From an uncultured bacterium (GTDB lineage: Bacteria > Patescibacteriota > Minisyncoccia > Phycocordibacterales > PALSA-1337): 64,000 nt of DNA. The first letter of the stretch is position 1; each line of letters starts with the position of its first letter. The notes below the pieces were generated by a model. It had not been told where the DNA came from and searched no databases. It saw nothing but the letters and a program-made list of their open reading frames with translations. The position numbers were made by a program, and so were the translations under genes. Location of the stretch: positions 111,341 through 175,340 of the forward strand of contig CAWKEA010000005.1 in NCBI GenBank assembly GCA_963848635.1. The letters run 5' to 3'. Below, in pieces: positions 3,954 to 59,252 of the stretch.

Positions 3954-4967
3954 TTATTTTTTCGCTATGATAGTCTTTTTATACACATCCAAATGCTCCA
4001 TAGCGATGCCGGTTCCTTTCGCGACGCAGAACAGCGCATCCTCGGCGAGGACCGCCTTGACTCCCGTCCGACGGTAGACAAGCTCGGGAAAATTGCGGAG
4101 CATGGACGAGCCGCCCGTCATGATGATGCCATGGTCGATGATGTCTGAAGCGAGCTCGGGCGGCGTTTCCTGAAGGACGTCCTTCATGGCTTTTATCATG
4201 TCGCGCAGTTCTTTGACGATGGCTTTTGTGATCTCGTTCGTGCGCAATTCGACGGAACGCGGCAGACCAGTGATGAAATCGCGGCCTTTGACCGTCATGA
4301 CGAGCTCCTCATCGAGGGGCACGGCAGAGCCGATCTTGATCTTTATGTCTTCGGCCATCTGATCGCCGATACCGAGGTTGTGGGTCTTTTTTATATAATC
4401 AGCTATAGCCGCATCGATCTTATTGCCTGCTACTTTGACCGAAGCAGACGAAACAATGCCGCCAAGCGAGATGACGGCCACGTCGGTCGTTCCGCCGCCG
4501 ATATCAACGACCATATGCCCGCGAGCTTCATGGATAGGAATGCCCGCGCCGATGGCAGCAAGAACTGGTTCCTTGACAACATAGGCATTGCGAGCGCCAG
4601 CGCGCAGAGCGGCCTCGACAACGGCGCGACGCTCTGTCGATGTGATCGATGCCGGTACAGATACGATGACGTCCGGTTTCCAAATATTCCATTTTCCGAG
4701 AGCCTTGTCGATAAAATAGCGGAGCATCGCTTCTGTTACGCGATAATCCGCGATGACGCCGTCACGCATCGGCTTGTAAGCGATGATGGTGTCAGGCGTG
4801 CGTCCGACCATTTCCTTTGCTTCTATGCCGACAGCGAGGACTTTTTTGTCGATTTGGGAAATAGCAACGACTGAAGGCTCGTTCAAAACGATGCCTTTGC
4901 CGGGCACAAAAACGAGCGTATTGGCCGTGCCAAGGTCGATACCGAGCTGTTTAGAGAAGAAAGCCAT
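3954..4967 (-). CDS. mreB: Rod shape-determining protein MreB, actin homolog (paralog 1)
   Basis: GIDLGTANTLVFV phosphate-1 motif, DIGGGTTD, actin-fold conservation throughout; likely real start MAFFSKQLGIDLG at 4967 rather than the track start 5063. Confidence 0.85.
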   Translation of the reverse strand: MAFFSKQLGIDLGTANTLVFVPGKGIVLNEPSVVAISQIDKKVLAVGIEAKEMVGRTPDTIIAYKPMRDGVIADYRVTEAMLRYFIDKALGKWNIWKPDVIVSVPASITSTERRAVVEAALRAGARNAYVVKEPVLAAIGAGIPIHEARGHMVVDIGGGTTDVAVISLGGIVSSASVKVAGNKIDAAIADYIKKTHNLGIGDQMAEDIKIKIGSAVPLDEELVMTVKGRDFITGLPRSVELRTNEITKAIVKELRDMIKAMKDVLQETPPELASDIIDHGIIMTGGSSMLRNFPELVYRRTGVKAVLAEDALFCVAKGTGIAMEHLDVYKKTIIAKK

Positions 4968-5040
4968 TTGTGGATGGACTATATCACAAAATAGCCATGA
5001 ATCAAAGAATATAATCGATAAAAAATAAAAGAAAAAGCCC

Positions 5041-6378
5041 TCAATCCATGACTTCTTCACCATGAACTCTCCTTATATCAACGCCGAGAGCAGTCAAAGT
5101 CTCTTCGAGCGATTCATAGCCGCGATCTATGAGATGAACGTTATGTACAACAGAATTTCCTTTTGCAAGGAGGGCTGCGAGAACTATTGCAAAGCCCGCG
5201 CGGATGTCGTGGGCTGTGAGCTCTTGGCCGGCGGACAAAGCTTTGTATGAGGTCGGACCAGTGACAAGGATCTCGCGAGAATTCATGACTTTAATATTTG
5301 CACCAAGATTGTTTAAATCGTCGACATACTTGAACCTTCCCTCGAAGATAGTTTCAAAGACGATACTCTCGCCTTTTATTTGGGACAAGTAGACTGCGGC
5401 GATCGGCTGGAGGTCGGTCGGAAAGCCTGGATATTCGTGCGTGCGAATGCTTGCAGATTTAAAAGAAGAATTCTTAAGTTTACCGTTCCCCTTTACCCTA
5501 ATAAAATCTTTTCCTATTTCAAGGGGTACGCCGGAGCTTGCAAGAAAATTTGTCGTCGCTTCCAAATGCTTTGGCTCGCATTTTGAGACGAGGAGGTCGT
5601 CCGCGCACAGAGCTCCGAGAAAAAGAAAGCTGGCCGCTTCGATCCGATCTGGAATCGCTCTATATGATTTTTTGGCCTTTAATGGTTTTCCGCCGCGAAT
5701 CGTCATCGTCGTCGTACCTGCACCATCGATTTTTGCTCCGCATTCATTCAGCCATTTTGCGACGCTCTCGATCTCTGGCTCCATGGCGCAATTCTTGAGA
5801 GTTGTTGTCCCCTTTGCCAAAACAGCCGCCATCATTAGGGTTTCTGTGCCAGTGACAGTCTGGATCGGAAAGAAGATATCCGCCCCTCTCAAGCCGTCTT
5901 TCGGCGCGGTTATCTTGAACATGCCGTCTTTTTCAAGAACGATCGCGCCCATTTTCTTGTATGCTGTGATAAAGAGATCGACTGGTCGCGCGCCGATGAC
6001 ACAGCCGCCAGGCGACGGAAAAGAGACCTCGCCGTAACGCGCGAGTATAGGACCGGTCGTTACAATAGACGAGCGCATGCTCTGCGAGATAAGAGGATCG
6101 AGATCGGCAGAAGAAAGATCCGAGGCATCGATCGAAAGCATATCCCTGCCGCCGCTTTTTCGCTTTTCCACCTTCGCGCCAAGTCCTACGAGCAGGTCAG
6201 ACATGCTATCGATATCGGCTGTGAGGGAAATATTTCGGATATCGATCGCGTCTTTAAAAAGGATGCTCGCCGCCATCGCCTTCAAAATAGCGTTTTTCGC
6301 GCCCTTGATTCGCACTTCGCCGCGCAAGGCCTTCTTGCCCGCGAGGCCTTTTACGACGAATGAGTCAGTTTGGGACAT
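5041..6378 (-). CDS. murA: UDP-N-acetylglucosamine 1-carboxyvinyltransferase MurA
   Basis: VKGLAGKK...RIKGAKNAILKAMAASIL N-terminus, conserved along the whole length; probable start MSQTDS at 6378. Confidence 0.9.
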   Translation of the reverse strand: MSQTDSFVVKGLAGKKALRGEVRIKGAKNAILKAMAASILFKDAIDIRNISLTADIDSMSDLLVGLGAKVEKRKSGGRDMLSIDASDLSSADLDPLISQSMRSSIVTTGPILARYGEVSFPSPGGCVIGARPVDLFITAYKKMGAIVLEKDGMFKITAPKDGLRGADIFFPIQTVTGTETLMMAAVLAKGTTTLKNCAMEPEIESVAKWLNECGAKIDGAGTTTMTIRGGKPLKAKKSYRAIPDRIEAASFLFLGALCADDLLVSKCEPKHLEATTNFLASSGVPLEIGKDFIRVKGNGKLKNSSFKSASIRTHEYPGFPTDLQPIAAVYLSQIKGESIVFETIFEGRFKYVDDLNNLGANIKVMNSREILVTGPTSYKALSAGQELTAHDIRAGFAIVLAALLAKGNSVVHNVHLIDRGYESLEETLTALGVDIRRVHGEEVMD

Positions 6379-6501
6379 AAGCACAGTATATATTTTTTTA
6401 GGGAAAAGAAAAGGCAAAAATCTCTTGAGAAAGCCGATAGATAAATGGTTTTCAATATATGAAATTCCCTAATCAGGGGCGGTTTTGTATACCCAGCTTG
6501 A

Positions 6502-6981: not shown

Positions 6982-9696
6982 TTACTGCGCCACTGCCCTA
7001 TAGAAACGTATAGGATAGTTCGTTGCACTCGGATCCATGAATTCGGCTGTCCCCGTAATATTTTGGAGAATAGCGATGTTCACCCAATTCGTGCCAATGA
7101 GGTTAGTCGTGGCTTGGATGTAATAACTGTCAGGCTGACCGACGAGTTGATAGACCCGACCACTCGCTGTATTTGTCACAGAGAGTACAGGCTGTTGAGT
7201 GATTCCTGAAGCATCCACTTCGATATTTGTAATTGTGGTATTCGGATCTGCTGAGGTGAAGGGATCAAGATGGAATCCAAGCACATGGCTCGTACCCACA
7301 GTCGATATCGGCATAGGTAGACTATAGTGTTGGAGACCTGTATTGACGGCGGCTTCATCAATGAGACCGAGCAGATTCGTATCCCAATATACCGACAAGA
7401 GTCCACGACCACCCTCAACACTCGCAAAATCAGCGTCGAATGACAAGAGGTTGACGCTATTTGTTGGAGTAACCACAATTGAAACCCATGCCGGCGTCGA
7501 ATCAGCCGTCAGCCCCGCGAATCCAGAAGACGTCGTTACTGTCCCGTTCTGGCTTTGCCACGTCGAGGACGCAGAGAAGTCGGGAACGATTACTTTTATG
7601 GCATCAGCTAAGATACGCGAGATACAGGACGAATATACGGGACCCAGATTTGTCATTGATCCATAGGATACACCGTCGCCAATCTTATAGAGATTAATAG
7701 CCTTGGCCCAACCACCGCCTTCCATACTCAAAGGAAAGCCGAAGCCGTCGTATGACGGTGGATTCGTGATCGAGTTTTGGTAGAACGTCACCGGCCAACC
7801 GTGGCTCGATTCCACTTGATAGCAGGGACTCGTCAGGTCAGATGACGAGACATATCCAGGAACTTGCTTAGCGGCGCTCGGGTCGAGCGTCGTCACGTTA
7901 ACATTGTAAGCGTTGGCGAGAGGCATGCCGGTCCAATTGCCGGTCCAATCGTCAGCCAGGTAACAGTCAGACCAGTCGGCCGCTTGACCATATGAATTGG
8001 CTTCTTCATATGTCGATCCTACATACGGGTCGAGGAAGGTGCATTGGATAGTTAATGGCGTAGACGCGATGAGCGAGCTAATCCTCATCTCTTCCGCCGC
8101 CGACTCTATGAGCTCTGATCCAGCGCTGTGGGCGATGAAGTGGACATTCGTCCAGCCCTTCGCTGTGATGTCGTTTCCGAGTATCTTTCCGATCTGATTG
8201 GCATTATTGAGGGCAGTCCCTGGGTTTGGTGTGAATGCTCCCGCTATCCATTTTATGCCGATAACTCGCCAATTGTTCAATCCATTGTTATGCAGATACT
8301 GAGCAATCGAATTCGACATCGTATCGACCCATGTAGTGCTTGCCTCGGGTTTTGAATAATCAGCGGGATAAATGATACCGTGAGTAATAACCACCAATCC
8401 TTCATCGGACGTACCCTTGATCGGCGCTTTCGGATACACAGGCAGGTTTGTCTGCACAGCGGTAGCAGCTGTCACTGACCCAAATGGTAATGGATTGAGA
8501 AGGAAGGCGTGGTCCTGACCAGCTGGATTTATTCCGCCACCAACAATTTGTCCAGAATTATTTATACATTCAGCTGATACAAGTATCCAACCAGAGTTGG
8601 TCACAATCAGGTTATTCAGATCATACATGACTGTTCCGTAATATAGCAGTGGGTGGAAACTATTGTTTGCATAAGCATAGCCAACTATTTGACCGCTGTC
8701 ATTAATTGAGCAAGCAATATTTTCAGTACTACCTGGGAACCTTCCTAGATCTTGCATTGAACCATTTTGATAAAGAAAGGCGTCATCAGCAACATTGTTA
8801 CTTGTAAGTGAATCTCCAACTATCTGACCGTTATTGTTTATGGCCCATGCACTACTAGTATCACCTCCCAATGTTCCGATATCATGCATTGAACCATTCT
8901 GATATAAGAATGCGTGAAGAGGAAAAGGGACTTTGGCTGATAATGATGCCCCGACAACTTGAGCCTTATTATTGATGCCATAAGCGAGGCTAAAACCACT
9001 CGACCCCAACAATGTGCCAAGATCTTGCATTGAACCGTTCTGCCACAAGAATGCATGTTCAGATCCACCACTATTAGGTGAGTACCCAACAATTTGACAA
9101 TTATCGTTGATACTATAAGCTACAGTCCAATTAGTGCCTCCTAAAGTGCCTAGACTTTTCATTGAACCATTTTGATAAAGGAAAGCACGTGGGATACTAT
9201 CACCGTTTGTGGATGAGTATCCTACGACTTGACCGTTATTATTGATCCCATTAGCATAACCGAAACTACTACCTGGTAAAGTACCGATGTCTCGCATTAT
9301 TCCGTTCTGCCACAAGAATGCATGTCCTGAATTACCGACTACCTGTCCAGTATTATTTATTCCAGAAGCCGAACTTACATAGCCGCTTAATGCTCCAAGA
9401 TCAATCACTGCATACGTTGGTGGCAATCCTTGTTGACTATCCATCGGAGACACACCGCCATCCATCGGACTTGCTTTTGCAAGTTTCGCCTTATTCGCTT
9501 GTATCCTGGCAGTAATTGCCGGAGATATCGGCGGAGGCATGATGAGCTGTATATTTTGCTCCAATTGTGCCTGTCGTGCGGCAATCTGCGCAGGGGTGAG
9601 CTTGCTGACGCTCGTCTGTCCAATCATATTTCCAACTGACAATAAGGCCGTGAACAGGATCACAACCACAGTTTTAAGGATTACATTTATTTTCAT
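6982..9696 (-). CDS. Large secreted protein: signal peptide, Q-rich linker, about eight HAF-family extracellular repeats, lipase/esterase-like alpha/beta-hydrolase domain, C-terminal beta-rich domain
   Basis: Repeated HAFLWQNGSMQDLGTL-type units; VVITHGI...HFIAHSAGS (GxSxG-like) hydrolase motif; start MKINVILKTVVVILF at 9696. Confidence 0.7.
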   Translation of the reverse strand: MKINVILKTVVVILFTALLSVGNMIGQTSVSKLTPAQIAARQAQLEQNIQLIMPPPISPAITARIQANKAKLAKASPMDGGVSPMDSQQGLPPTYAVIDLGALSGYVSSASGINNTGQVVGNSGHAFLWQNGIMRDIGTLPGSSFGYANGINNNGQVVGYSSTNGDSIPRAFLYQNGSMKSLGTLGGTNWTVAYSINDNCQIVGYSPNSGGSEHAFLWQNGSMQDLGTLLGSSGFSLAYGINNKAQVVGASLSAKVPFPLHAFLYQNGSMHDIGTLGGDTSSAWAINNNGQIVGDSLTSNNVADDAFLYQNGSMQDLGRFPGSTENIACSINDSGQIVGYAYANNSFHPLLYYGTVMYDLNNLIVTNSGWILVSAECINNSGQIVGGGINPAGQDHAFLLNPLPFGSVTAATAVQTNLPVYPKAPIKGTSDEGLVVITHGIIYPADYSKPEASTTWVDTMSNSIAQYLHNNGLNNWRVIGIKWIAGAFTPNPGTALNNANQIGKILGNDITAKGWTNVHFIAHSAGSELIESAAEEMRISSLIASTPLTIQCTFLDPYVGSTYEEANSYGQAADWSDCYLADDWTGNWTGMPLANAYNVNVTTLDPSAAKQVPGYVSSSDLTSPCYQVESSHGWPVTFYQNSITNPPSYDGFGFPLSMEGGGWAKAINLYKIGDGVSYGSMTNLGPVYSSCISRILADAIKVIVPDFSASSTWQSQNGTVTTSSGFAGLTADSTPAWVSIVVTPTNSVNLLSFDADFASVEGGRGLLSVYWDTNLLGLIDEAAVNTGLQHYSLPMPISTVGTSHVLGFHLDPFTSADPNTTITNIEVDASGITQQPVLSVTNTASGRVYQLVGQPDSYYIQATTNLIGTNWVNIAILQNITGTAEFMDPSATNYPIRFYRAVAQ

Positions 9697-9788
9697 ATCT
9701 ATCTTCTCTTTCTTTTTGTATTTTGTGTATTTTATTTTCAAAGACGACATACAGCAGGTATATCGTCGGGCTAGCAACTAGAACTTAA

Positions 9789-10852
9789 GTTTTAATAATT
9801 CTCGAGGAATATTTTGATATAATTTGCACATGAAAAAAAGAAACAAAAAAGACTCACAAATTGTGACCGTCATGAGATTCATATATTAATCAGAAAGGGA
9901 TATACTCAAAGTGAGATTGCTGACAGAATTGGAGTAACACAAGGTGCGATCTCATATGAAATCAATCAGAAGACAAGAGATGATCGTTTGTACGATTCAG
10001 AATACTCAAGACACGTCACATACGTTCGTAAGCATCACAAACGTACTCGTGGCAATACGATTGCAGAACACCCAGATCTTCGAAAGACAGTAACCGAATA
10101 TCTAATGGACGACCAATCACCAGAACTGCTCTCTGGAAGGCTTAGAAAGCTTCATGCAGATATTCCATACGTATCAGGCAGAACGATCCGTAAATTCATC
10201 AAAAGTCCATATGGAAGAAGAATCAAAGCAAAGAGAAACAAAATCCACAGAAGAAGAGGTAAAAGAAGGTTGAAATTTGAAATCACTAACAAACGTATGA
10301 TCGACAAAAGACCAAAGTATATCAAGGACAGAAAGAGAATCGGTGATACCGAGGGTGACTTCATTGCTTCAGGTAAAACTGGTCTGGGTATGCTTCTAGT
10401 TGTAACTGACAGAAAGAGTCGTGCACCATTCCTTGAGAAGATATGTCCTGTATCAATCAGGACGATGGAAAATGGTTTCAGAAGAATCAAAAGACGTTTT
10501 CCTGAGTTAAAAACAGTAACTCTCGACAATGATATCTTGTTCATCCACCACAAAGAGCTCGAGAGGAAATTCCATATCAAAATCTACTTCTGTCACAAGC
10601 ACTCACCTTGGGAAAAACCACTAGTGGAGAACAGAAACAAACTGATTAGAAGATACATTCCTAAAGGATCTGACATTTCAAGATATACACGCTATTACAT
10701 TCAAAAATTGGAAGCAAAATTGCAGAGACGCATCATGAAATGTTTAGACTACAAATTACCCAAGGAAATACTCGAAGAACATCGTAAACGAAAAAAGAAG
10801 CCCTAATCGCTTCCTTTCTGTTAGATTTTCCTTCTTAGAAAAATATTAAAAC
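9789..10852 (+). mobile_element. IS30-family insertion sequence, about 1064 bp, with imperfect terminal inverted repeats (gttttaata...)
   Basis: Left end gttttaataattctcgagga at 9789; right end reverse-complement gttttaatatttttctaaga ending at 10852, about 16/21 identical; encloses the IS30 transposase. Confidence 0.65.
9830..10806 (+). pseudogene. IS30-family DDE transposase, split by a 1-nt frameshift in an A7 run right after the ATG
   Basis: N-terminal HTH KRLTNCDRHEIHILIRKGYTQSEIADRIGVTQGAISYEI lies in a different frame from ATG 9830; one extra A in run 9833-9839 would restore MKKKKQKRLT...; downstream GDTEGDF catalytic region is intact. Confidence 0.7.
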
Positions 10853-10933
10853 GTGGGGTGTGGGTGCCGCTAATGCCTACACTGAGGTATACTATAGTAA
10901 ATAAGTTCTGTCAACCACTCAAAATCTGCTATA

Positions 10934-12862
10934 ATGGCAGACATGAACATCCTCGAGATAATACCGATCGCCCGTGGCACGCGCGTCGAGACGCTGTCGT
11001 ATTTTACCAGTGAGAATCCGCCATTAGGCGCTATCGTCGACATCCCTCTGCGCGGCAAGACTGTCCACGGAGTAGTCGCGGCCGTGCGGTCAGCGGCCGA
11101 GATGAAAGCCGACTTGAAGACTGCCCCGTTTTCCTTGAAAAAGATCGAAAAAGTAAAGTCACGGGATTTCTTGCCCGCGGCTGTCATCGAAGCCGCACGG
11201 CTCGAAGCCGATTATGCAGGCGCGACCGTCGGCGCCGTGCTGAAATCGATGGTGCACGAGAGCATCTTTGCGGCAAGCGGAAAATTGGTGAATGCCCGTG
11301 CTGTGGGACAGAAAGCACCCGAGGGCGAGGCCTCAAAGCCGTCTGTCCATGTCCTCCAGGGCGATGACGACGACCGTTATGGGGCATATCGCAGTATGAT
11401 CCGCCAGGAATTTGCCCGAAAGAAGTCGCTTTTCTTTATGGCACCGACAGTCGAAGAAGCCATCTATTTGAATGCTATTCTTGAGAAAGGCATCGAGAAA
11501 TATATATTTCTCATCCATCAAGGGATGACGGCGAAAAAGATATGCGAACAATGGAACAAGGCGGTCCGAGAAGATCATCCTATAGTCATGATCGCGACCG
11601 GAAGCTTTATGGCGTTTTGGAGGGACGACCTTGAAACGCTGGTCGTAGAGCGCGAGAGCATGCGCGGCTGGAAAAGTCAGCGCAGACCGTATATCGACTT
11701 GCGCCATGCTATCGAGACATATGCCAAAAAAGCTGGCCTTAGGCTTTATATCGGCGATCTAGCCGTGCGGGTCGAGACGTCGCGCAGGCAGGACCAAGGG
11801 GAGATCGAAGCTGGATCCCTCTTCAAGTCCCGTTCAGTCTCGATGGCGCATGACGCCGTGATAGATATGAAACAATACAAGGGCGGCTCATCATTCCGCA
11901 TATTCTCGGAGCTTGCCGAGGCTTTACTGCAAAGGACGATCGAAGAAAACGCCCATATGGTCATCATTGCGGCGCGCAAGGGCCTTGCGCCTTCGACCGT
12001 CTGCGGCGACTGCCATTCGATCGTCGTCTGCAATAGTTGCGGCGCGCCCGTTGTCCTCCATGAGAGCAAAAAAACGGGCAAGGCAGAAGAAAGCGGCCTG
12101 ACATATTTTCTGTGCCACCATTGCGGCGAACGGCGACGGACCGAAGAATATTGCAAAACGTGCGGCTCGTGGAAGCTCGGCACGGTCGGCATCGGTATCG
12201 ATCTGGCACGGAAAAAGATCTTTGACCTTTTCCCCGGCGCCAACGTTTTTCAGCTCGATTCTGACAGCGCTCCGACGCCGAAAAAGATCAGGGAAACTAT
12301 CGAAAAATTCAAAGGAACGCCCGGTTCGATCCTTCTCGGAACCGAACTGCTCGTGAACCACTTGCACGAGAAGATACCCTATGCGGCGGTTGTGACGCTC
12401 GATTCGCTCCTTTCCTTGCCCGATTTCCGCATCAGCGAGCGCATCTTCTACATGCTCCTGCGATTGCGCGCCCTGACCGAACGAGAGCTCGTGGTACAGA
12501 CGAGAAAACCCGAAGAAAAGACGTTCGAATTCGCCGGCAAAGGCAATATAACCGATTTTGTCCGCCATACCCTCGGTGAGCGAAAGCAATTCGATTGGCC
12601 GCCATACTCCATTCTGATCAAGCTCTCGATCGAAGGCAAGCGCGACGAGATAGCGGCTGAGATGGAAAAGATAAAAAATCTCATCGCGCCTTTCGAGATA
12701 GACATCTTCCCATCATTCACTGCCGGTATCCGCGGAAATTCCCTACTTCATGGGGTTATGAGACTGCCAAGCGGCTCGTGGCCGCACCACGGCCTTCTTG
12801 CCAAATTGCGCGATCTCCCGCCTGCTGTCTCTGTGAATGTCGATCCGGAGAGCTTATTATGA
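10934..12862 (+). CDS. priA: Primosomal protein N' (PriA) homolog with degenerate ATPase/helicase motifs
   Basis: PriA-like N-terminus and Cys-rich zinc-binding region CGDCHSIVVCNSCG...CHHCG...CKTCGS, but Walker A replaced by GDDDDRYG, DEEH by VERE, and GRAGR by LRLRAL. Confidence 0.6.
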   Translation: MADMNILEIIPIARGTRVETLSYFTSENPPLGAIVDIPLRGKTVHGVVAAVRSAAEMKADLKTAPFSLKKIEKVKSRDFLPAAVIEAARLEADYAGATVGAVLKSMVHESIFAASGKLVNARAVGQKAPEGEASKPSVHVLQGDDDDRYGAYRSMIRQEFARKKSLFFMAPTVEEAIYLNAILEKGIEKYIFLIHQGMTAKKICEQWNKAVREDHPIVMIATGSFMAFWRDDLETLVVERESMRGWKSQRRPYIDLRHAIETYAKKAGLRLYIGDLAVRVETSRRQDQGEIEAGSLFKSRSVSMAHDAVIDMKQYKGGSSFRIFSELAEALLQRTIEENAHMVIIAARKGLAPSTVCGDCHSIVVCNSCGAPVVLHESKKTGKAEESGLTYFLCHHCGERRRTEEYCKTCGSWKLGTVGIGIDLARKKIFDLFPGANVFQLDSDSAPTPKKIRETIEKFKGTPGSILLGTELLVNHLHEKIPYAAVVTLDSLLSLPDFRISERIFYMLLRLRALTERELVVQTRKPEEKTFEFAGKGNITDFVRHTLGERKQFDWPPYSILIKLSIEGKRDEIAAEMEKIKNLIAPFEIDIFPSFTAGIRGNSLLHGVMRLPSGSWPHHGLLAKLRDLPPAVSVNVDPESLL

Positions 12863-12894: not shown

Positions 12895-13623
12895 CTATTG
12901 AACGATCTTGCGAGCATTGCCCTCCTTCTTGCGTTCAAGGAAAAAAAGACCCATGATAAATGAGATCAGGTACTTGAATTCAAGGTTGAGGATGCCTTCT
13001 TTTTTAAACCTCCGTGCTGACGTCTTTATAGTGAGATGAGGGCTGAATATGACTTTTCCGACTTTCGTCAATCGTCTTGCCGTATCTGTGTCGTCTCCGT
13101 AAAACACTATATCTGTATTGAAACCTCCGACCGCTTCGAGCGAGCTTGCGCGCATGAAGCTGTTTCCGCCATTCATGATCGCCCCCGCACCGAAAAATTG
13201 CGCAATCGCGCTGATGGGCGTATATATCCATTTCTGGACTTGCAAAGAAAGATACCTGAACAACGTCCCGTAATCATAATAATCGTATGGACCGCCGGCA
13301 CCGGACACTTTTGGATCGTTAAAAAAGGCGGCCCCTTTCGACAACCAGTCTTTGTCCGGCACGCAGTCGGCATCCATACGAACGAGTATATCCCCTTTTG
13401 ATTCCGTTCTTCCTCTCTCACAAGCTGACATCGTTCCCTTCCTACTTTCAGAAACGAGCTTGGCCTTTTGAAAGGATCGAGCGATCTTGGCAGTGCCGTC
13501 AGTGCTCGCGTTATCCACGACAATAACCTCGAAATCAGGATAATCTTGGGCAAGGACTGCCTCGAGAGTCTTTCCCAAGTATTGTTCTTCATTGTATGCG
13601 GGGATTATGACTGATATTTTCAT
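12895..13623 (-). CDS. Family 2 glycosyltransferase
   Basis: MKISVIIPAYNEE...VIVVDNASTDGT...DADC, the GT-A fold signature. Confidence 0.85.
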   Translation of the reverse strand: MKISVIIPAYNEEQYLGKTLEAVLAQDYPDFEVIVVDNASTDGTAKIARSFQKAKLVSESRKGTMSACERGRTESKGDILVRMDADCVPDKDWLSKGAAFFNDPKVSGAGGPYDYYDYGTLFRYLSLQVQKWIYTPISAIAQFFGAGAIMNGGNSFMRASSLEAVGGFNTDIVFYGDDTDTARRLTKVGKVIFSPHLTIKTSARRFKKEGILNLEFKYLISFIMGLFFLERKKEGNARKIVQ

Positions 13624-13705: not shown

Positions 13706-14432
13706 TCATCGTATCACCTTCCATTCCTTGACATATGCTCTCTTGAACAAGAACATCCAGACGGTATTCATGAACCAGAGCGACAAAAGCCGCGTCCAGC
13801 CCGTCTTATGAGCGCGCCGGCCGGTATGAAAGACCTTGAGCCTCGGATCAAGCCTGACTTTGCCCAACTTTGAAAGGCGCGAGAACAATTCTATGTCTTC
13901 GGCCGCGACGAGCTTTGGGTCATAGCCGCCTGCCTTTTTGAAGACGCTCGTCCTCATCATCTGGAATTCGCCGCCGGGCGATACCCCATAGCAGAGGACG
14001 TTGTTCAAGAAGCTCATCCATATATTCTGGGATATGAATATGATCTTATCGGCCAACGTCTCTGATTCCGGTAAGACGCGGAGCCATCCAGTGAGGGCCA
14101 CGAGCTTTTTTTCTTTAGTTAAAATCTTCGAGAGCAGTCGCAAAGAATTCTCCAGAATGAGTGACACTACAATCAGCATCCATGAACGCCAAAAAATCGC
14201 CTGCCGCCACGGCTGCTCCGGCATTGCGGCCCGCCGCTATCGTCTGGCGCTCCGGCCCCGCATGCTCGACAACCTTGTCGGCATATTTTTTGGCGATCTC
14301 GACTGTCTTGTCAGTGCTTGCTCCATCCGTGACGATGATCTCGTGCGGCAGAGATAGATTATTTTTGAGCGACGTCAAAGTCTTTTCGATGACGCTTTCC
14401 TCGTTTTTAGTCGGAATGATGATGGATATCAT
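13706..14432 (-). pseudogene. Family 2 glycosyltransferase split into two frames (105-aa N-terminal part and 172-aa C-terminal part)
   Basis: N-terminal part MISIIIPTKNEE...DADCSVTHSGEFFATALEDF ends at TAA 14115 and continues in the +1 frame as ...KLVALTGW; shift next to a T4/A7 run around 14105-14135. Confidence 0.7.
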
Positions 14433-16491: not shown

Positions 16492-19268
16492 TTATTTTTT
16501 ATACTTCTCGTTTATCTGCGCTTCTATCTCCGCGCGATCCTTGCCATAGGTCAAGTATGATAATTCTTTCAGCTTGCCTGCGATATCGCGATCGCCTTTT
16601 GGAATGTTCGGCACTGCTATATTGAATGGCTTCACAGGAATGCCTTTTGCGAGGATCTTTACATATGCGTTGAAGTTGTCGATATTGAGAATATCTTTTT
16701 GGGTAAAGACGGGCTCGAATTGCTTTGCAAGGAATTCAGCGTCTTCGGTGCCGACGCGGAAGATGGCCATGGATCCGACGTTGCCGAAGACGGCGTTCTT
16801 TATCTTTTCATCGAGCTGTTTGATGAATTGGTGCGCGATGTTAAGCGACAATTTATATTTGCGCGCTTCGGACAAGATCGTCGAGATGGAATCGGTGGTG
16901 ATATTCTGGAATTCATCGACATACAGATAGAACGGCGGCAGATCCTTGCCCAATCGAATCGACGCGCGACAGAGCAGCCATGAGGATCTTGCCGATCAAA
17001 ATGAGGCCGATGAGGTTCGCGTTGATGTCGCCAAGGCGGCCTTTGGACAGATTGACGAGCAGGATCTTCTTATTGTCCATGATGTCGCGGAAATTGAAGG
17101 TCGATTTTTCCTGGGCGATGACCGGGCGCATGATATCGTTGGCCAGGAAATTGTCGAATTTGGAGACGATGTACGGCACGATGTTGGCGAGCGACGCCTC
17201 ACCGCCAGCTTTGTCCGCCACCTCGCGCCAGAACTGGATGACAAGCGGATTCTTGCACGTGGCCAATTTCGATTCGCGGAAAGCCTTGTTTGAAAGGACG
17301 CGCGAAACGTCGATGAGCGTGTTATTTGACGAAGGGTCATCAATGGTAAGGAGGACCGCATTGCGGAAATATTGCTCGAACATAGGCCCGCCTGCGGTCT
17401 TCATATCAAAAAGCTTGTTGAATATTGAGAGCATCTCGTTCACGACGAAGGTCTTTTGCTCGGGATAGCGAGTATCATATTCGAGCATGTTCAAGCGCCA
17501 TCGGCCGCGCAGTATAGGCAGGATCGAAATAGATGACGTCCTCGAACCGGTTCGGCGGCACGAGGGAAAGGATGTCTTCGACGTCGGATCCGTGCGGGTC
17601 GATAAAACAGAGGCCATTCCCTTTTTGCATGTCCTGAAGGATCATGTCCTTGAGGAGAGTCGTCTTGCCGGTGCCTGTCTGGCCGATGACGTAAAAATGG
17701 CGCAAGCGGTCTTCGTCGGTCGTGAACACCTTTGTCTCGCGGCCTCGGTCGCTGTTTTTGCCGAGATAGGTGCCCGATTGCGGCAAGTCCATCGGCGCGG
17801 GAGCAGAGCCTGATTTCGTCAATTTGACCTGCGATGTCGAAATGCGGCCAGCGACCGGCAAATGCATGACGGTGGCCAACTCGCGGAGAGAAAGCGGGCA
17901 ATCGTAATCGCCATCGAATCGCCGATATGTGAAGGTATCGAGCTCTTTTTCGAGCTTGCCCTTTGTCGCGCGCGCGAATTCAAAGCGATTGCCAAGCGTA
18001 TTCTCGAACTGGCTGAAAGAGGCCTCGAGGTCGGTCAAGATCGCATCTGCCTTCTCTTGGCTTTCCGCCGAAGCGACGATGCGGATGTTGGTCGACAGAA
18101 TAGGCGAAGCGAGCTTGCTCTGTATCTCTTTCATCCCGAGCTCGTCCTCTGGACGCGGCCCTTTCTGAGACTTTTTTTCTTCTTTTTTCTTTTCCTTGTC
18201 CTCCTTGCTCGTCGTAAGATTGTTCAAAAGGCCGACCATGCCGGAAGCGGCGCCCTTTATAGCCTTGTGGCCGAGAGAATAGGCGATATCGATCGCTTCG
18301 CTGAGCTTTTCGCCTTTTTGTATCTTCTCAAGCGCTTTCCTATATTTATCTGAAAAAAATCCGCCGACAGGATTGAAAACGATCTGAATGCATCCTCCTT
18401 CGCCGTCCTTGTCGATCTTTGAGAAACTGTTCAAAAGCGCATTGATCGGGTCATGGTCGAACTGCTCATATGTCTTTATGGGAAAGATATGATTCCGCGC
18501 CTGCCGTGCATATGAAGCCGCCACAGCCCCTTTTTCATTGAAGATATTGAAATCGTCCTTGTGCTCGGTTATTTTCGCGTCGGGAAATATCGAAAGGATC
18601 TGCTTTTCGAAAAGATTGCGCTTCTCGTCTGGCACGGCGGCATAAAAGACAAAATCGTCGCTGTGATTGGCCACGGCGATCTCAAAGGCAAAGATGCTGT
18701 TCACGCCGCCGCTATTGACTGACATTCCCGCGTAGAACTGTTCCATGGATGAAAGGAGCTCTTTGAGCGGCTTCTGCGTCCCGTCTTTCTTTTCATTTTC
18801 CGGCACAAGGATCTCGAACAGCGACATCTTGAGAGAGCTCCACAGATCGTCTTTCTCTTTCAAGCCGCCGATGATAAAGCCGGATTTTATATATTGCACG
18901 AGCAATCGATGGAAGTCGTCGGAGACGTGCGGGTCATCCATCTTTTCGACGACGGAAAGGGTCGCATGGATGCCTTTCGTCTCAAGCATGCCGAGAAGCT
19001 CGTTCATCTTTCCATCGTGCGCTTCCGGCGCGAGGTCGAGCACGACGGCCTCCATCTCCGGCGTCGGCACGATGTATTTTTCGTGCAAAACCTCGTCAGG
19101 CTTTTTCTCGGCATATTTCACGACTTCCTCGCGCGCCACATGCTCGACGCTCCCATCTGGCGTCTTTTCGAGCAGGTCGCGCTCGCGCCTTGCGATCATC
19201 TCGCGCAGATATGCGATCTCCTCCTGCGGATTGGTGAATTTTTCCTGCGTGCCTGTTAGGTTTTCCAT
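16492..19268 (-). pseudogene. VirB4/TrbE/CagE-family type IV secretion ATPase with a 440-aa N-terminal domain, split into three frames (two frameshifts near 17490 and 16935)
   Basis: Walker A GQTGTGKTT, then in the next frames ...LLVNLSKGRLGD...ILMAALSR and ...PPFYLYVDEFQNI...EARKYKLSLNIAHQFIKQL, the VirB4-type Walker B and RK..QS motifs. Confidence 0.65.
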
Positions 19269-19612: not shown

Positions 19613-20713
19613 TTAATTGAGGGTGCTCTTGTCGAAGCCGGCGAACATCGTGTCGAACAGAGCGCTGAATATAGACGCCCAAAAGCCGCCTTTTGCGGCG
19701 ATCGCCCCTTTCCTTTCATTCACTCGTTCTCTCATAAATCCATCGCGGTGAAGACCTTTTTCTTGATCAGTCAATTGATTCCATATAGCATCATCTAGAT
19801 TATTTGTTGCATTGCTTCTCCATTTTTTAAAATCAGCCTTTATTGTCGCCTCATCGACCACTTCTTTCTTGATGTCATTCATTCCAAAGACTTCTTTCTT
19901 TTTCGGTTCCCCGGCCATCTCGCGGTTGAGCGCCTCCAGCATGTCTTGGTTCCCTTTTATGCTGAGAGCCAATACAGATCCGATCTCTCTTTTCCAATGG
20001 TCAAGCTCGGCAAACGCCGCCTCCAAATCTGTCTTCATCTCGACGAGCTGTCGGATCCTCTTGCCTGAAGTGAGCGCCTTCCAAAAGCCTGCATTTTCCA
20101 CGGCCAGCTTGTTGATGGCTTTTTTGCGTTCGACATCGTCGGATATCGCCGCGGCTTTCAGATATTTTTCTGGATTGATGCCTTGTTTTTTGCACAGATC
20201 TTCGACTTTGTCATTGAGCTCCTTGAATTGGCCATTCCTTGAATTCTGAAGGACTTTGACGCTGAGAGATATCTCTCTGAACCTGCTCGGATCGCTGACC
20301 GCTATCTTTTTGATCGTTTCATGGGATATCTTGACGATACCATCGGCGCCGACCTCCTGCATGATCCTTTGGATATCGGGATTATTTTTTGCTATCTGCT
20401 GTACCAGTTCAGGCGTCAGCTCGCTTTTTATGGCCTCCGCTTCACGCATTTTCTCGGAAAACGCGTCACGCGCTTCAGCTATCTTTTTCACATCGTCGGC
20501 CTCCATTTTTCCAGAAACCAGCCTGGCGAGCATTTCCTTGTCGTCAGGGTCTCCCGACTGTTCGATCATCTCGCCGAAAAGAGCGCTCGATTCCTTGCCG
20601 CTCAATATTTCCTTGACCGTGAGCGTATCCACCGGCTCTTCCGGTATGCCAGCCTTCTCTCGTCTGTCTTTTTCGAGCCTATCCTTCTCTTCGCTGAATA
20701 TGTCGATTTTCAT
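19613..20713 (-). CDS. Hypothetical coiled-coil-rich protein, 366 aa, first gene of the ATPase operon
   Basis: Charged helical sequence with no recognisable catalytic motifs. Confidence 0.5.
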   Translation of the reverse strand: MKIDIFSEEKDRLEKDRREKAGIPEEPVDTLTVKEILSGKESSALFGEMIEQSGDPDDKEMLARLVSGKMEADDVKKIAEARDAFSEKMREAEAIKSELTPELVQQIAKNNPDIQRIMQEVGADGIVKISHETIKKIAVSDPSRFREISLSVKVLQNSRNGQFKELNDKVEDLCKKQGINPEKYLKAAAISDDVERKKAINKLAVENAGFWKALTSGKRIRQLVEMKTDLEAAFAELDHWKREIGSVLALSIKGNQDMLEALNREMAGEPKKKEVFGMNDIKKEVVDEATIKADFKKWRSNATNNLDDAIWNQLTDQEKGLHRDGFMRERVNERKGAIAAKGGFWASIFSALFDTMFAGFDKSTLN

Positions 20714-22477: not shown

Positions 22478-24934
22478 TTATTGTCCTGCCGTGTTGCTTG
22501 TGCCTGAGTCGGCAGAAGTCTTGCCTTCGACCGGTGGAGAAGTCCTTTTTTCTGGGGTCGAGACAGGGGGAGCCTGATTTGCAAACGCGCTCTTGCCGCC
22601 CTTTAGGTTCGACAGGATGCCAGCGACGTCCGCATTGTCTGGATTTGTCTTTGACAATTGCTCGAATTGCGCGATCGCATCGGCGTTATCCCCTGTCTTT
22701 GAATATGAGAGCCCGAGGAAATATTGGGCATTAGCATAATTAGGACTCAAGGAGACAGCTTGGGAGAGAGACGCGACGGCGTCGGAATACTCTCCGGCAT
22801 TGTATTGCAAAAGGCCGAGCTCGAAGAATGCTGTCGGATCATTTGGAGTCAATTGGGTAGCGAATTTGACCGAAGTGATAGCGTCTGCAGTATTGCCTTC
22901 TGCCACTTGGATCTGCGACAAAAGATATACCGCATCAGTGTAATTATTTTTGAGCTGAAGGGCTCGAACCAATATAGCTTGTCGCATCGCTGTATTTGCT
23001 CTGTCCGGCGGCTGTTTGGGCAAGGTCGAGGTACAGCAAAGGGCTATACGGATTATACTTGAGAGCATTGGTATACGCGGTGACGGCCGCGGCATAGGCG
23101 CCATTGATCTGGAGCCCCGCAGCTATTGAGTAGACCTGCGCTTCGGACAGATAATTATGGTAATCCGATGGATCGTGCTTGACCGCATCGACTGCGTTAG
23201 CGGCTCCTTCATTGACGAGAGCCCCTATCTGCTGGATTTGTGCCTGTGTCGGCTTTGCGCTCGAGCCAGCGGAATATATCGTTGTGCGATCATGCGCACC
23301 GCTGTGAGATCCGTTTGAGCCAAGGCCTGATCGTATATGTCTTCATGGTCCAAAGCCAAAGCTTTGTAAAAGTAGTTATGGGCTTTGGACATGCCAACAG
23401 ACGACAATGGAGAAGCGGAAATGTCAGCGACCCCGGCGGTAAAGTATCCGAAAGCAGTAGCCCTCATCGCATATACGACGAAGCCCGCGATCAGCACAAG
23501 AAGGATGATCGCTCCAAAAGACCTACCATAGAGCCTCGTTTTCCCTTCCCACTTGGAAGGAAGCGCGACCAGCCTCATATCTCCGGACCGAATGCATGAA
23601 CCGAAAAAGATTCCAATAAAGACGAATGTCAGAAAGAAATTGACGTACGAAGGGACATATACCAGATCGATATAAAGCAGGAATGCTCCCGCAAAGAACG
23701 ATGAGAAAGAGATAAAGGGCAAGAATATGCCGTTTCCCTGATCATCTGATGATTTGTCCGCCCGGACAGCAGGGCCTTTGCGGAGTACCTTCACGCCTGT
23801 ACGGATAAAGTAGACGTACAAGAGGCATAGGAGCACAATGCCTGACAAGCCGAGGGAAAGGGCTGTGGTCAGAACGATGCTTGAGCCATTTGAGAATTCA
23901 GTGGACCACAATTGGGTCAGATTTATAGCCAAAGGCTTGTACAGGAGATATTCCTTGGCGAACGTGTTTGGACCAGAGCCGAGAATAGGAGACACGTTCA
24001 TGATGCTTGTGCCGATGTTGAGAGTCGTCTGCCACGACAGAGGCGTCTCAGAATATCCTACCTTCAAAGCGCTGGCGAGAGGGTTCGTGACGCTGTTTCC
24101 TTGCCATACCATAAATACTGCCACGATGAAGACGATGCCGGAAAAGACTGGCAGGCGTTTGCTGACCGGAATGTCCTTTTTCTCATTGAAAAGCCTATGG
24201 AAAATGAGGGCAAGGAAAACCAGGGCGATGCCGAGCCAAACCGACGGCAAGCCAGCAATCAAGAGAAAGAAGAATGGGACTGCGAACAAAACGCCTGCCG
24301 CGCATTTGACGGCCTTGCTCATCGGAAAATACAGGAACGCAATGCCGAGAAGTATAAATATGATGCCGGAGAATATACCTAGGTTGTACCACGTGCCGAG
24401 GGGCGTAGTAGCGGCTCCGATAAATAGGCCGAAAGAGAGCGCCGATGGGTCTGCCAGCTTTATGATCTGGAAAAGGGTTACAACCAAGAAGCTAGAGAAT
24501 AGCGCTGTATATATCGTTAGCGCGCGAGACGAGCTACGCGAGGAATAAAGAGCCGTCAAGAGGAGAGCAATGCCCAGTATGATCATGAAGGCCGCTGTCG
24601 GATATTCGAATCCTTGGCCGAAAAAATATTTCAGGAAATCACCGCTCCAAGCGGAGGATAGCGCGAGAAGGACAACAAAAATGACGCTGATATACGATAT
24701 TGGATTGGCTATCCATTCAAAGGACTTTATCTTCCAGCGGGAGATAGCATACAGTATCGCCGAAACAAGAACGCCGAATGCAAGGAGATAGCCTTTGACT
24801 GCATTCTGTTCCAAATATGGAATAGGAATGACCACGATTGGTGCAAGAAAGATAAGAGCTGTCAAGATGCCATAGCCCCAAGATTCGAGCTTCGAGCTTG
24901 GTACTGCTTGGGCTGGTATTTGTTCTGGATTCAT
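22478..24934 (-). pseudogene. O-antigen-ligase-like (Wzy_C-type) polytopic membrane protein with a long C-terminal TPR domain, interrupted by at least two frameshifts (about 23250 and 22950)
   Basis: A 569-aa 12-TM ORF ends in a TPR-like tail; TPR-like reading continues in a second frame (..AYAAAVTAYTNALKYNPYSPLLYLDLAQTAAGQSKYSDAT) and then in the 22478-23104 ORF frame. Confidence 0.55.
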
Positions 24935-26673: not shown

Positions 26674-27105
26674 TTAACCTTCCATCCCAAACGAATCTGG
26701 ATAATGACGTATCGGTTCGAGCCTGGCATATTCGCGATCAGCGTGCCGTCGGCCGATAATGATTTTGTCGCCTTTCTCTTTCTGGCCAAGAATCCATCGA
26801 CAATAGAGCACTTTGCCGCTCTGATCGGTCGAATCATATCCGACCTTGACAGCGCAGTATCCGAGCAAGGATCGCACATTGTTGCCTCTGATGAACAAAG
26901 TTGCTGGTCCGAGTCCACTCAAATACGTCCACTCGCTACTTGCACCGTCCTTGTTTTTTGTGCCGCCCCATGACGAACCACCGAAGCCCCAGCCAAACGT
27001 GTTCGAGATAACGCGGCATACGTGTCCACAGATTTTTTGAATGAGCATAATTTCCTTTCTTTTGGAATTTAAACCAAGGATATGATTGATTTGGGTAATT
27101 GTCAA
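26674..27105 (-). CDS. Hypothetical secreted protein, possibly an RlpA-like double-psi beta-barrel
   Basis: Weak resemblance only (GYDSTDQSGKVLYCRWILG...IIIGRRHADREY); overlaps the rarA stop by 4 nt. Confidence 0.35.
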   Translation of the reverse strand: MTITQINHILGLNSKRKEIMLIQKICGHVCRVISNTFGWGFGGSSWGGTKNKDGASSEWTYLSGLGPATLFIRGNNVRSLLGYCAVKVGYDSTDQSGKVLYCRWILGQKEKGDKIIIGRRHADREYARLEPIRHYPDSFGMEG

Positions 27106-28274
27106 GATTTCCTCTTCAGGTATTTCTTCCCTTTCAATTTCTCCGGCAGGTAGCCGCTCTTGTCGTATTTTTCATAGCCTTTGCCATAATTCAGATCTTT
27201 CATCAATTTCGTCGGCGCGTTGCGGATGCGGAGCGGAATGGGCAAGTTCCCTGTCTTCTTTACATCAGACAAAGCCTCCATGTAGGCGTCGTAGGCACTG
27301 CGGTCTTTGGCGGCGAGGGCAAGGTAGGCCACGCCGTGCGCGAGGTTCTCGCGGCATTCGGGCAGCCCGATATATTCGACAGCGGCAAAGACGGCGTTGG
27401 CGACGACGAGGGCTGTCGGCTGGGCGAGGCCGATGTCTTCGCTGGCGAACACGACCATGCGGCGGGCGATGAACTTGGGGTCTTCGCCGCCTTCGAGCAT
27501 GCGGGCCAGATAGTATATGGCGGCGTCAGCGTCGCCGGCGCGCATGCTTTTGATGAAGGCGCTGATGGTGTCGTAGTGCTCTTCTCCTTTTTTATCGAAA
27601 CGGATAAAGGAATGCTCGAAGGTGTTCTTGAGATTCTCCAGCGTTATCGGCCCGTAGAGGCGCTGGCAATTCTCGATAGCGGTGATGGCGATGCGCGCGT
27701 CGCCGTTCGACAGTGCCGCCAGCCATTCGAGGGCGTCCTTGCCTACTTTTATCTTGGTCCTCTTTACGATGGCCTTGATATCCGCCTCGGTCAGCGGTTG
27801 CAGGACAAAGACCCTGCAGCGCGACAGGAGCGCGGGGATGACCTCAAAGCTGGGATTCTCCGTCGTCGCGCCGATGAGGGTGAGCCGGCCGGACTCCACA
27901 TAGGGCAAAAGAAAATCCTGCTGGGCCTTGTTGAAGCGGTGGATCTCGTCGAGGAATAGCACTTTTGGGCGGCCTTCGAGCAAGGTGTCCGGTTCGTCGA
28001 TGATCTTCCTTATGTCTTCTTTCCCTGCCGAAACAGCAGAGAGCTCATATATCCTGGCATTGACCGCCTTCGCATAGATCCTGGCAATCGTCGTCTTGCC
28101 AGTGCCGGGTGGGCCCCACAATAGAAAAGAAAACAGATGCTTGTCATCAATGGCTTTGCGGAGCGGTTTTCCTTGGCCCACTAAATGCTCTTGACCGACA
28201 AAGTCTTTGAGAGTTTGAGGCCGAATCTTGTTTGCGAGGGGTTCCATGACGTAAGTATACGCTTTTTTGTGCAT
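27102..28274 (-). CDS. rarA: Replication-associated recombination protein A (RarA/MgsA), AAA+ ATPase
   Basis: [16 protein letters not shown] Walker [11 protein letters not shown] Walker B, sensor motifs and C-terminal MgsA helical domain. Confidence 0.9.
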
Positions 28275-44371: not shown

Positions 44372-45247
44372 TCAGCGGCCTTTCGGAGAAGTCGGAGAAG
44401 TCGTAGAAGTCGACGAGGCGGTCATGACAGAACCGGAAAAAGGCTTGGGCCGTGGAACATTCGTCCCGACGAGCATAAAAAGCGATTGATACGGATTTAT
44501 GCCTTCGCTGAATAATATCCTTTCAAAGGGCTGTTCGGGATTTGAAATGACAGCGTCGACAGCGCCAAACGGCGAAGAAGAAACTGCCGGGATGATCACC
44601 TCGTCACCCATGGATACGCCCGATTCACGGGAGACCGATGCGGAAAAGAATCCGCCGCCTTGCCCGGCCGCCGTCGCCGGTACATGGGCTGAACCGACAA
44701 GGACATCGTAGCTCGTTCCCGGCGAGGAATAAAGCTCGGCCTTTGAAGAATGTGCATCGGCTTCGACGATCTGACCGACGGGGATAGATCCTACAGAATA
44801 TACCGAATCGCCAATTGACACGCCAAGAGTCGAACCGATATCCAAGATGAGATAATCGTAGCCAGAGCCCGGAGGTCTGCGCAGGACATCGGCCAGAACA
44901 AGATCGTTCGTACCGCCAGACCGGCCGAGGAGAGACCTCAGTTCATTTACCTCGTCCAACAAGGCTTTCGAGCTTGATGCTGTGGCTTGGTCCTGTGCAA
45001 GCTGTTCCTGAAGAGCCTGATTCTCTTGCTCTAATTGCGTCTCCGATGTCATGCCGGAAACAGCGGAATCTTTGCCTGACCACAACGGCAAAAAAAGATG
45101 CGAGAAAGCCGAAGAAAGCGTGCGAGGAGATGCTAATTGGATGATCAGAACGATAAGGACGAAGGCAACGGCAAAAGCGATCGGCCGAGAGATCATCCGG
45201 CCGCTCTTCTGCCGACGTGAAAAATTATTTTGGTCGCGCGATCTCAT
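44372..45247 (-). CDS. mreC: Rod shape-determining protein MreC
   Basis: N-terminal TM, coiled coil (QLEQENQALQEQLAQ), beta-rich C-terminal domain; directly downstream of mreB. Confidence 0.8.
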   Translation of the reverse strand: MRSRDQNNFSRRQKSGRMISRPIAFAVAFVLIVLIIQLASPRTLSSAFSHLFLPLWSGKDSAVSGMTSETQLEQENQALQEQLAQDQATASSSKALLDEVNELRSLLGRSGGTNDLVLADVLRRPPGSGYDYLILDIGSTLGVSIGDSVYSVGSIPVGQIVEADAHSSKAELYSSPGTSYDVLVGSAHVPATAAGQGGGFFSASVSRESGVSMGDEVIIPAVSSSPFGAVDAVISNPEQPFERILFSEGINPYQSLFMLVGTNVPRPKPFSGSVMTASSTSTTSPTSPKGR

Positions 45248-46283: not shown

Positions 46284-46371
46284 GAGTGAAAGGTAGCTGT
46301 ATCCTATCACCAGTCCTGAAAATGGCAAATTTTCGATGCGTTCACAGCCGGCAATCATGCACGCCGACCCG

Positions 46372-59217: not shown

Positions 59218-59252
59218 GATGGCTAAAGTTATTCTTTCTTGCTCTGATTATA

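Follow-up and report, generated by a model that had tools for sequence, protein, structure and literature searches.

The question raised by the locus described here is what becomes of the replication restart protein PriA when the parts that should bind and hydrolyze ATP are gone, and whether such a gene is decaying, has been turned to another use, or still encodes a PriA of a different kind. The gene lies at positions 10934 to 12862 (+) of a 64,000-nucleotide stretch of contig CAWKEA010000005.1 (assembly GCA_963848635.1, positions 111,341 to 175,340 of the forward strand; "the window" throughout) from an uncultured bacterium. An initial annotation, made by reading the sequence alone, saw in it a PriA homolog that keeps its DNA-binding and zinc-finger modules, has lost every ATPase and helicase catalytic motif, and is predicted to act as a scaffold. 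The reading that we favor, at a probability of roughly three in four, is that this is the orthologous priA of a Paceibacteria bacterium (Parcubacteria, candidate phyla radiation, CPR), and that its product is a natural pseudohelicase, an ATP-independent scaffold.

Descent, fold, and start of the protein

Descent from PriA is supported by sequence profiles, by the predicted fold, and by gene order in relatives. The NCBIfam model TIGR00595 ("replication restart helicase PriA") matches residues 152-585 of the window protein with E=1e-55, and 13 other NCBIfam PriA models give E-values from 3e-54 to 3e-5. In HMMER comparisons with solved structures, residues 133-584 are colinear with Klebsiella PriA (4nl4, E=5e-29) and with E. 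coli PriA; when the family profile is aligned to E. coli PriA with hhalign, the probability is 99.9. The AlphaFold2 model, built with 113 family sequences, is confident (pLDDT 88.3, pTM 0.87), and in a Foldseek comparison with the PDB the first nine places are taken by PriA chains (E=1e-39 to 1e-26, TM scores 0.67-0.74), of which 8fak_H and 6dcr_A both reach 0.74. Next in rank come the superfamily 2 (SF2) helicases Mfd and DEAD-box proteins, and the two RecA-like SF2 lobes are present in the predicted fold. In Pfam, only the PriA 3'-end DNA-binding domain (3'BD, PF17764) rises above threshold, while the E. coli PriA control matches the 3'BD, winged-helix, DEAD, ResIII, Helicase_C, PriA zinc ribbon, and PriA_C families. 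DEAD, ResIII, and Helicase_C have no match in the window protein or in the family members run beside E. coli PriA.

Gene order was read in 81 sequences, the window and 80 loci of relatives with ±10 kb of flanking DNA. Within four genes of priA, def lies downstream in 59/81 and fmt in 67/81, and murA lies upstream in 67/81, with neighbor identities confirmed by Pfam. The murA-priA-def-fmt order of the relatives argues for positional orthology with canonical priA; priA-def-fmt is an arrangement that we take to be the classical one, as in Bacillus. Descent from PriA, as first proposed, is borne out by HMMER, hhalign, the predicted fold, and the priA-def-fmt order of relatives, and the refuting case named in the initial annotation, orthologs not derived from PriA, does not arise.

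The gene and the site that precedes it are as follows.

10934..12862 (+): priA, pseudohelicase form; 642 codons plus stop, from the open reading frame list.
10908..10935 (+): promoter-like site, CTGTCA-16 nt-(TG)TATAAT; consensus scan, 10/12 matches plus TG extension.

The reading frame is uninterrupted over exactly 10934-12862 (+), for a product of 642 residues. The true start is probably ATG 10943 (M4), giving 639 residues, since both the family consensus and a 639-residue database protein (P0001), which comes from an independent assembly and is 100% identical to the window protein, begin at M4. The promoter-like site, identified by consensus match alone, also speaks for that start: its extended -10 element (TG-TATAAT) ends at 10935, where it overlaps the first ATG, 7 nt 5' of ATG 10943. 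With this spacing the priA mRNA may be leaderless, with a transcript beginning near 10942-10943.

Loss of the nucleotide-binding motifs

Four motifs of the nucleoside triphosphate (NTP) site are lost.

11357..11383 (+): former motif I (Walker A), Q142-GDDDD-R148-Y-G; alignments show a short acidic turn where the P-loop would be.
11645..11659 (+): former motif II (Walker B, DEEH), V-E-R-E-S (238-242), aligned to "IDEEH".
11753..11779 (+): former motif III (SAT), G-D-L-A-V-R-V-E-T (274-282), aligned to "GSATPALET"; SAT is replaced by DLA, and the downstream ET is retained.
12449..12505 (+): former motif VI region (506-524); GRAGR deleted (5-residue gap in HMMER and hhalign alignments), Q522-T523-R524 retained.

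At motif I, the initial annotation read GDDDDRYG for Walker A, and HMMER indeed sets "GDD-DDRYG" (residues 143-150) opposite "GITGSGKT" of Klebsiella PriA; with the family profile, hhalign leaves the E. coli GVTGSGKT unmatched. DSSP applied to the AlphaFold2 model gives a strand at 138-142, then a turn of two residues, and a helix at 145-161 that is extended at its N-terminal end; the model thus agrees with the sequence in having no phosphate-binding loop. At motif II, "VVERES" (237-242) stands opposite "VIDEEH"; loss of Walker B was called correctly, its counterpart being ERES (239-242) rather than VERE, a shift of one residue. Across the family E239 is conserved in 85% and E241 in 93% of sequences. 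At motif III, "IGDLA" faces "LGSAT", and D275 (92%), E281 (97%), and T282 (91%) are well kept. The arginine finger of motif VI is likewise lost, by deletion of the five residues of GRAGR between "LRL" and "RALTERE" and not by the substitution first proposed; around the gap, R512 is conserved in 78%, Q522 in 95%, T523 in 92%, and R524 in 96%. A claim that every helicase motif is gone holds for the NTP motifs I, II, III, and VI and fails for motifs Ia, IV, and V and the aromatic-rich loop, which are retained (see "Retained modules and a missing winged helix").

A P-loop might still have been displaced within the protein, and regular-expression scans with strict and relaxed patterns ([AG]x4GK[ST]) found none anywhere in it. 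Its sole GKT, at residue 41, falls in a hairpin of the 3'BD. Canonical P-loops are present in three other open reading frames (ORFs) of the window, encoding MgsA, an ABC ATPase, and a HerA-like protein, which argues that the motif loss is not a problem of sequence quality.

Retained modules and a missing winged helix

The rest of the protein can be laid out as follows.

10934..11272 (+): 3'BD, residues 1-113; PF17764, conservation, AlphaFold2.
11273..11344 (+): variable linker, residues 114-137, at the canonical winged-helix position; winged helix absent.
11345..11953 (+): RecA-like helicase lobe 1, residues 138-340; fold kept, catalytic motifs lost.
11666..11704 (+): loop resembling the aromatic-rich loop, G245-W-K-S-Q-R-R-P-Y-I-D-L-R257; basic, directly after former motif II.
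11954..12598 (+): RecA-like lobe 2, residues 341-555, including the predicted zinc-binding insertion; more strongly conserved than any other region (entropy 3.7th percentile); AlphaFold2, Foldseek.
11969..11992 (+): motif IV-like A-A-R-K-G-L-A-P (346-353), aligned to "NRRGFAP"; retained.
12002..12163 (+): cysteine-rich region with CxxC pairs C357/360, C366/369, C394/397, and C407/410; two zinc ions predicted.
12329..12355 (+): motif V-like I-L-L-G-T-E-L-L-V (466-474), aligned to "ILIGTQMLA"; retained.
12599..12859 (+): probable PriA C-terminal domain, residues 556-642; Foldseek alignment spans the full length; ends in V-D-P.

The initial annotation had both DNA-binding and zinc-finger modules kept, and this is upheld by a PF17764 match above cutoff (28.4 bits against 22.7, residues 27-107) and by eight cysteines arranged as four CxxC pairs. 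PF17764 is also precomputed for nearly all relatives; within the domain L21, Y23, and G32 are conserved in at least 98%, and AlphaFold2 pLDDT is about 73-94. The cysteines are invariant in the 113-sequence alignment (A1) and 98-100% conserved in the wider set. Their spacing is 9, 28 (instead of 18), and 13, the middle loop being 10 residues longer than in E. coli PriA, whose reference cysteines are C436/439, 445/448, 463/466, and 476/479; the Pfam zinc ribbon model PF18319 stays below threshold in the window protein (E=0.54).

The DNA-contact elements that are retained rank with the most strongly conserved positions in the family. Lobe 1 is modeled with pLDDT 91-98 over most of its length and keeps motif Ia (P171-T172). 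Its aromatic-rich-loop-like segment is aligned by HMMER and hhalign to E. coli "SYKQQEGWRYHARD"; position 246 is Y in 79% (W in the window protein), position 253 is Y or F, and K247 (76%), R251 (86%), P252 (99%), D255 (98%), and R257 (95%) are conserved. In E. coli PriA the aromatic-rich loop crosslinks to the fork junction (PMC5175346). In lobe 2, R348 and G350 of the motif IV-like segment are 99% and P353 is 85% conserved, and the motif V-like segment is the most conserved short window of the protein (entropy 0.5th percentile; G469 95%, T470 99%, E471 94%). The C-terminal "VNVDP" aligns with E. coli "VDVDP"; PF18074 has no match in the window protein, falls below threshold in one relative (P0237, E=0.0012), and is precomputed in some others.

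One further loss was not noted in the initial annotation. PF21213, the winged-helix family, finds nothing in the window protein or in 3 other family members, as against 105.6 bits in E. coli PriA, and hhalign leaves E. coli residues of about 110-200 unmatched by the family profile. The 24-residue linker found in its place has pLDDT <50 at 123-127, and no other region of the protein has higher entropy (99.7th percentile).

Distribution among relatives and selection

The same state is found wherever the family was sampled. The sample comprised 120 close homologs, 149 representatives reaching down to 32% identity, and a further best 120 obtained with a second search seed, P0135, the most E. coli-like member of the family; more than 1000 homologs exist at the 90% clustering level, and a library at 50% identity holds 1198 clusters at E<=1e-30, of which the best 149 were inspected directly. 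A Walker A at the motif I position occurs in 0/375 full-length relatives, so that the motif loss first suspected for a single protein extends to its orthologs. Scanning of the 375 yielded 319 sequences with a matchable loop, of which 256 have 3-4 acidic residues in the motif I turn, with varying identities. Four P-loop and seven DEEH matches did turn up among relatives and were rejected because they lie at non-homologous positions (for example, a DEEH on the "REDHP" segment, 212-216). A boundary with intact PriAs of other Patescibacteria classes was not reached, all of the matches listed still being of the pseudohelicase form.

Motif loss is thus a trait of every relative sampled, held under strong purifying selection, and not decay. 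The gene can be regarded as functional because 69 columns are invariant among the 113 family sequences, because the nonsynonymous-to-synonymous ratio (dN/dS) is ~0.07 against a 77%-identical ortholog (L001; dS is near saturation), and because the family fills those 1198 clusters. Named sources of the relatives are Candidatus Taylorbacteria, Campbellbacteria, Paceibacter, Paceibacterota, Parcubacteria, and "Minisyncoccia", that is, class Paceibacteria, Patescibacteria. If a pseudohelicase is taken to be a PriA ortholog with lineage-wide loss of catalytic Walker A and B residues, this protein is one. It agrees with canonical PriA in homology, fold, 3'BD, cysteine-rich region, and synteny, and departs from it in the equivalog score, the winged-helix domain, and the NTPase motifs, and it is most accurately labeled "PriA ortholog, pseudohelicase form". 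Public labels of the relatives are primosomal protein N', often "hypothetical protein", or, wrongly, "superfamily II helicase".

The title "uncultured Candidatus Saccharibacteria bacterium" is borne by many GTDB-representative metagenome-assembled genomes (binchicken/TPA assemblies) in which a Paceibacteria-type PriA is encoded. Since these PriAs are 40-74% identical to Taylorbacteria and Parcubacteria proteins, the name is more likely a taxonomic placeholder than a sign of true Saccharibacteria.

Comparison with known PriA systems

The concept of a PriA pseudohelicase is already known. Such proteins were described from Deinococcus-Thermus by Lopper, Boone & Morrow in 2015 (PMC4504706), a precedent of which the initial annotation was unaware and which lowers the novelty of the present case; the main PriA review treats that group as the single exception. 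For D. radiodurans PriA, neither ATPase nor unwinding activity could be measured, but its affinity for single-stranded DNA and forks is close to that of the E. coli protein, and DnaB is among its interaction partners (PMC4504706). The CPR protein resembles the Deinococcus-Thermus form as a natural ortholog with non-functional motifs I and II, conserved lineage-wide. In Deinococcus-Thermus, a recognizable Walker A remains, with its lysine replaced by arginine, along with a poor Walker B; in CPR PriA, by contrast, an acidic turn takes the place of the entire P-loop, there is neither SAT nor arginine finger, the latter through a deletion, and no winged helix remains. Because the motif states differ in this way (K to R versus replacement of the whole loop), and because the phyla are unrelated, the two losses would most simply be explained as independent events.

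A second comparison comes from E. coli genetics. The K230R protein (priA300) has no ATPase, helicase, or translocase activity, yet the strain is nearly wild-type and restart in vitro is supported; only the PriA-PriC route and phage Mu transposition require the motor, and priA300 fails in both (PMC5778457). The appeal made at the outset to helicase-dead priA alleles that still support restart is therefore sound, the scaffold role being separable from the motor in such variants. Like priA300 and the K230A/D variants, the CPR protein would be a motor-dead PriA of the kind that assembles primosomes via PriA-PriB; unlike it, the K230 variants are engineered point mutants in which all other motifs are present, and they work with the partners PriB, DnaT, and DnaC; for the CPR protein, no partner of the PriB, DnaT, or PriC kind was identified. 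The winged-helix deletion of E. coli PriA (PDB 6dcr) has the same domain set as the CPR protein (3'BD, two lobes with the cysteine-rich region, and, probably, C-terminal domain) and the highest structural similarity to its AlphaFold2 model (TM 0.74/0.74). That laboratory construct keeps an intact ATPase, and the CPR protein is without both the winged helix and the ATPase motifs. Canonical PriA (TIGR00595; 4nl4, 6dgd, 8fak) shares with the CPR family the colinear domains, the eight-cysteine insertion in lobe 2, the 3'BD, probably the C-terminal domain with its VDP end, motifs Ia, IV, and V, and priA-def-fmt linkage. It differs in its NTP motifs, its winged helix, and its shorter zinc-finger middle loop (by 10 residues), and identity between the two is ~20%.

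A proposed scaffold model for fork recognition and primosome assembly

A role as a scaffold in fork recognition and primosome assembly is what we infer from the retained DNA-binding elements together with the precedents of priA300 and D. radiodurans PriA. Judged by its motif losses, the protein would neither bind nor hydrolyze ATP and would neither translocate along DNA nor unwind it. Its 3'BD can be envisioned as recognizing the 3' end of the nascent leading strand at abandoned forks, while the static helicase core would bind the lagging-strand template through motif Ia, the aromatic-rich loop, and motifs IV and V. This ATP-independent platform may then recruit the replicative helicase DnaB, directly or through a partner. 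A PriA without a motor would be unable to strip the nascent lagging strand, so that restart could occur only at forks where single-stranded lagging-strand template is already exposed, or else would be reliant on other enzymes.

Alternative readings

Several observations weigh against this model. The TIGR00595 score, 189.3 bits, is under the equivalog cutoff of 230.35, and the window protein scores far under every cutoff of the NF0040xx and NF0114xx models; the sub-cutoff TIGR00595 score means that curated criteria would not automatically name it PriA, although the E-value of 1e-55 does show homology. The genomic DNA read consisted of the 64-kb window and the ±10 kb flanks of relatives, and a second, intact PriA could lie elsewhere. 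Among window ORFs of at least 150 residues, DnaB, DciA, SSB, PriB, and a DnaD/DnaI-like partner were not found. Finally, residues at the former active site are conserved (Q142 94%, R148 100%, E241 93%, D275 92%), a possible sign that this site has kept or gained a function which a simple scaffold would not explain. One such function could be structural: the former nucleotide cleft may have been repurposed, with the acidic turn, R148, E239/E241, and R510/R512 acting as an inter-lobe salt-bridge latch, a nucleotide mimic that holds both RecA lobes in a single conformation, or a dock for a partner such as DnaB, so that the protein would be a conformationally locked loader and not a passive scaffold. 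Besides the conserved residues, this idea draws on the persistence of acidic residues in the turn while their identities vary, on the conversion of the P-loop to a two-residue turn and longer helix modeled at pLDDT 91-98, and on shortening at either side of the cleft, by 1 residue at motif I and by 5 at motif VI. Conservation averaged over windows at former motifs I and VI is merely average, though (41st percentile), and covariation, examined for contacts between former motifs I, II, and VI, gives phylogenetic signal alone, its top pairs being subclade markers (mutual information with average product correction, APC; 370 sequences, effective 295). We regard a repurposed cleft as improbable, and are similarly doubtful of its most far-reaching form, in which PriA throughout Paceibacteria, and possibly more of the CPR, would be a conformationally locked, ATP-independent helicase-loading adaptor whose cleft is now an acidic/arginine latch or docking site and which, with its winged helix lost as well, might be the main or only DnaB-delivering factor of these minimal genomes, not merely a back-up for restart. 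The same residues could instead mark a cryptic ATPase, in which R148 replaces the Walker lysine and E239/E241 form a Walker B-like pair; a one-residue alignment shift does place the invariant R148 at the K230 position, and acidic residues persist at former motif II. This is very unlikely, as K230R alone abolishes E. coli PriA ATPase (PMC5778457) and the same K-to-R state is found in the ATPase-dead Deinococcus PriA. The glycine-rich loop is moreover acidic, SAT and the arginine finger are gone, and Pfam helicase models no longer detect the lobes.

If the nucleotide site is accepted as dead, the gene might still be something other than the restart PriA of its host. The low equivalog score would fit a diverged paralog that does not serve in restart (it might be a DNA-binding factor of the zinc-finger kind) and is present beside a canonical PriA elsewhere; the priA-def-fmt position in relatives and their public annotation as primosomal protein N' speak for orthology instead, and the pseudohelicase form is the one found in 80/80 genome loci, among whose contigs are one complete chromosome of 682 kb and others of 300-600 kb. 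Small genomes of such size rarely retain paralogs of replication genes, and we hold a paralog to be highly improbable. Disruption close by (an IS30-like ORF upstream, a split glycosyltransferase downstream, loss of def-fmt linkage) might suggest that the gene is decaying or already a pseudogene, or that the motif loss is an artefact of assembly or sequencing. That reading is effectively refuted by the identical protein from an independent assembly, by the shared motif state of 375 relatives from many studies, and by the dN/dS value, to which the intact 642-codon frame and the confident structural model can be added. A pseudohelicase ortholog acting as a scaffold thus remains the preferred reading.

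Implications

The lineage (CPR), the degree of motif loss, and the missing winged helix appear to be unreported in the searchable literature: no prior description of a CPR PriA pseudohelicase was found in full-text literature, and the one Patescibacteria paper with priA concerns the unrelated phylum UBP6. Uncultivated small-genome bacteria, with at least 375 sequenced relatives that have neither the motor motifs nor the winged helix, would provide a second, very large, and probably independent exception after Deinococcus, and a more extreme one. CPR PriA joins, in nature and under selection, two defects known separately from laboratory variants of E. coli: that of priA300 and the winged-helix deletion. 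It lends support to the idea that PriA is at its core a factor for recognizing forks and recruiting the helicase, to which the motor is an accessory. A compact, static PriA could also suit structural work on fork recognition and DnaB recruitment. There is a lesson for annotation as well, in that these proteins fall under the NCBI equivalog cutoff and get mislabeled.

Gene neighborhood and other features of the window

In the window, the gene order of the relatives is rearranged. An IS30-like ORF and a gene for a 931-residue protein separate murA from priA, which are usually neighbors in relatives, and glycosyltransferase genes are found in place of def-fmt, a pair that the window lacks.

5041-6417: murA.
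6982-9777 (-): 931-residue, repeat-rich, secreted-looking protein; weak DUF3466 match.
9988-10806 (+): IS30-like ORF, directly upstream of priA; no Pfam match at 1e-3.
12895-13623: intact family-2 glycosyltransferase (GT2) gene.
13706-14432 (-): split GT2, next to the intact gene.
27102-28274 (-): MgsA/RarA AAA+ ATPase with an intact GPPGTGKT, 14 kb from priA.

Within the split GT2, 14115-14432 carries the N-terminal GT2 domain and the overlapping 13706-14224 is the remainder, with no Pfam match, an arrangement that suggests a frameshift or pseudogene. MgsA/RarA is the only other replication-fork-maintenance gene seen in the window.

Elsewhere, two full-length MreB paralogs occur within the 64 kb, at 3954-5063 (-) and 45225-46382 (-), the second in an mreB-mreC-PBP2 cluster. 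The leucyl-tRNA synthetase (LeuRS) ORF at 48729-51752 (-), of 1007 residues, has embedded Pfam serine/alpha-beta hydrolase (244-371) and NUDIX (561-681) matches, both of which lie within its synthetase and editing-domain architecture, and the anticodon-binding C-terminus is on a separate, overlapping ORF at 48301-49038 (-); the region could reflect a frameshift, a split gene, or an unusual LeuRS with domain insertions. Large ORFs (366-597 residues) at 17475-19268, 19613-20713, 23225-24934, and 57769-60437 (all -) have no Pfam family or a faint HerA/STAND P-loop match, and the one at 17475-19268 carries GQTGTGKT at residue 529.

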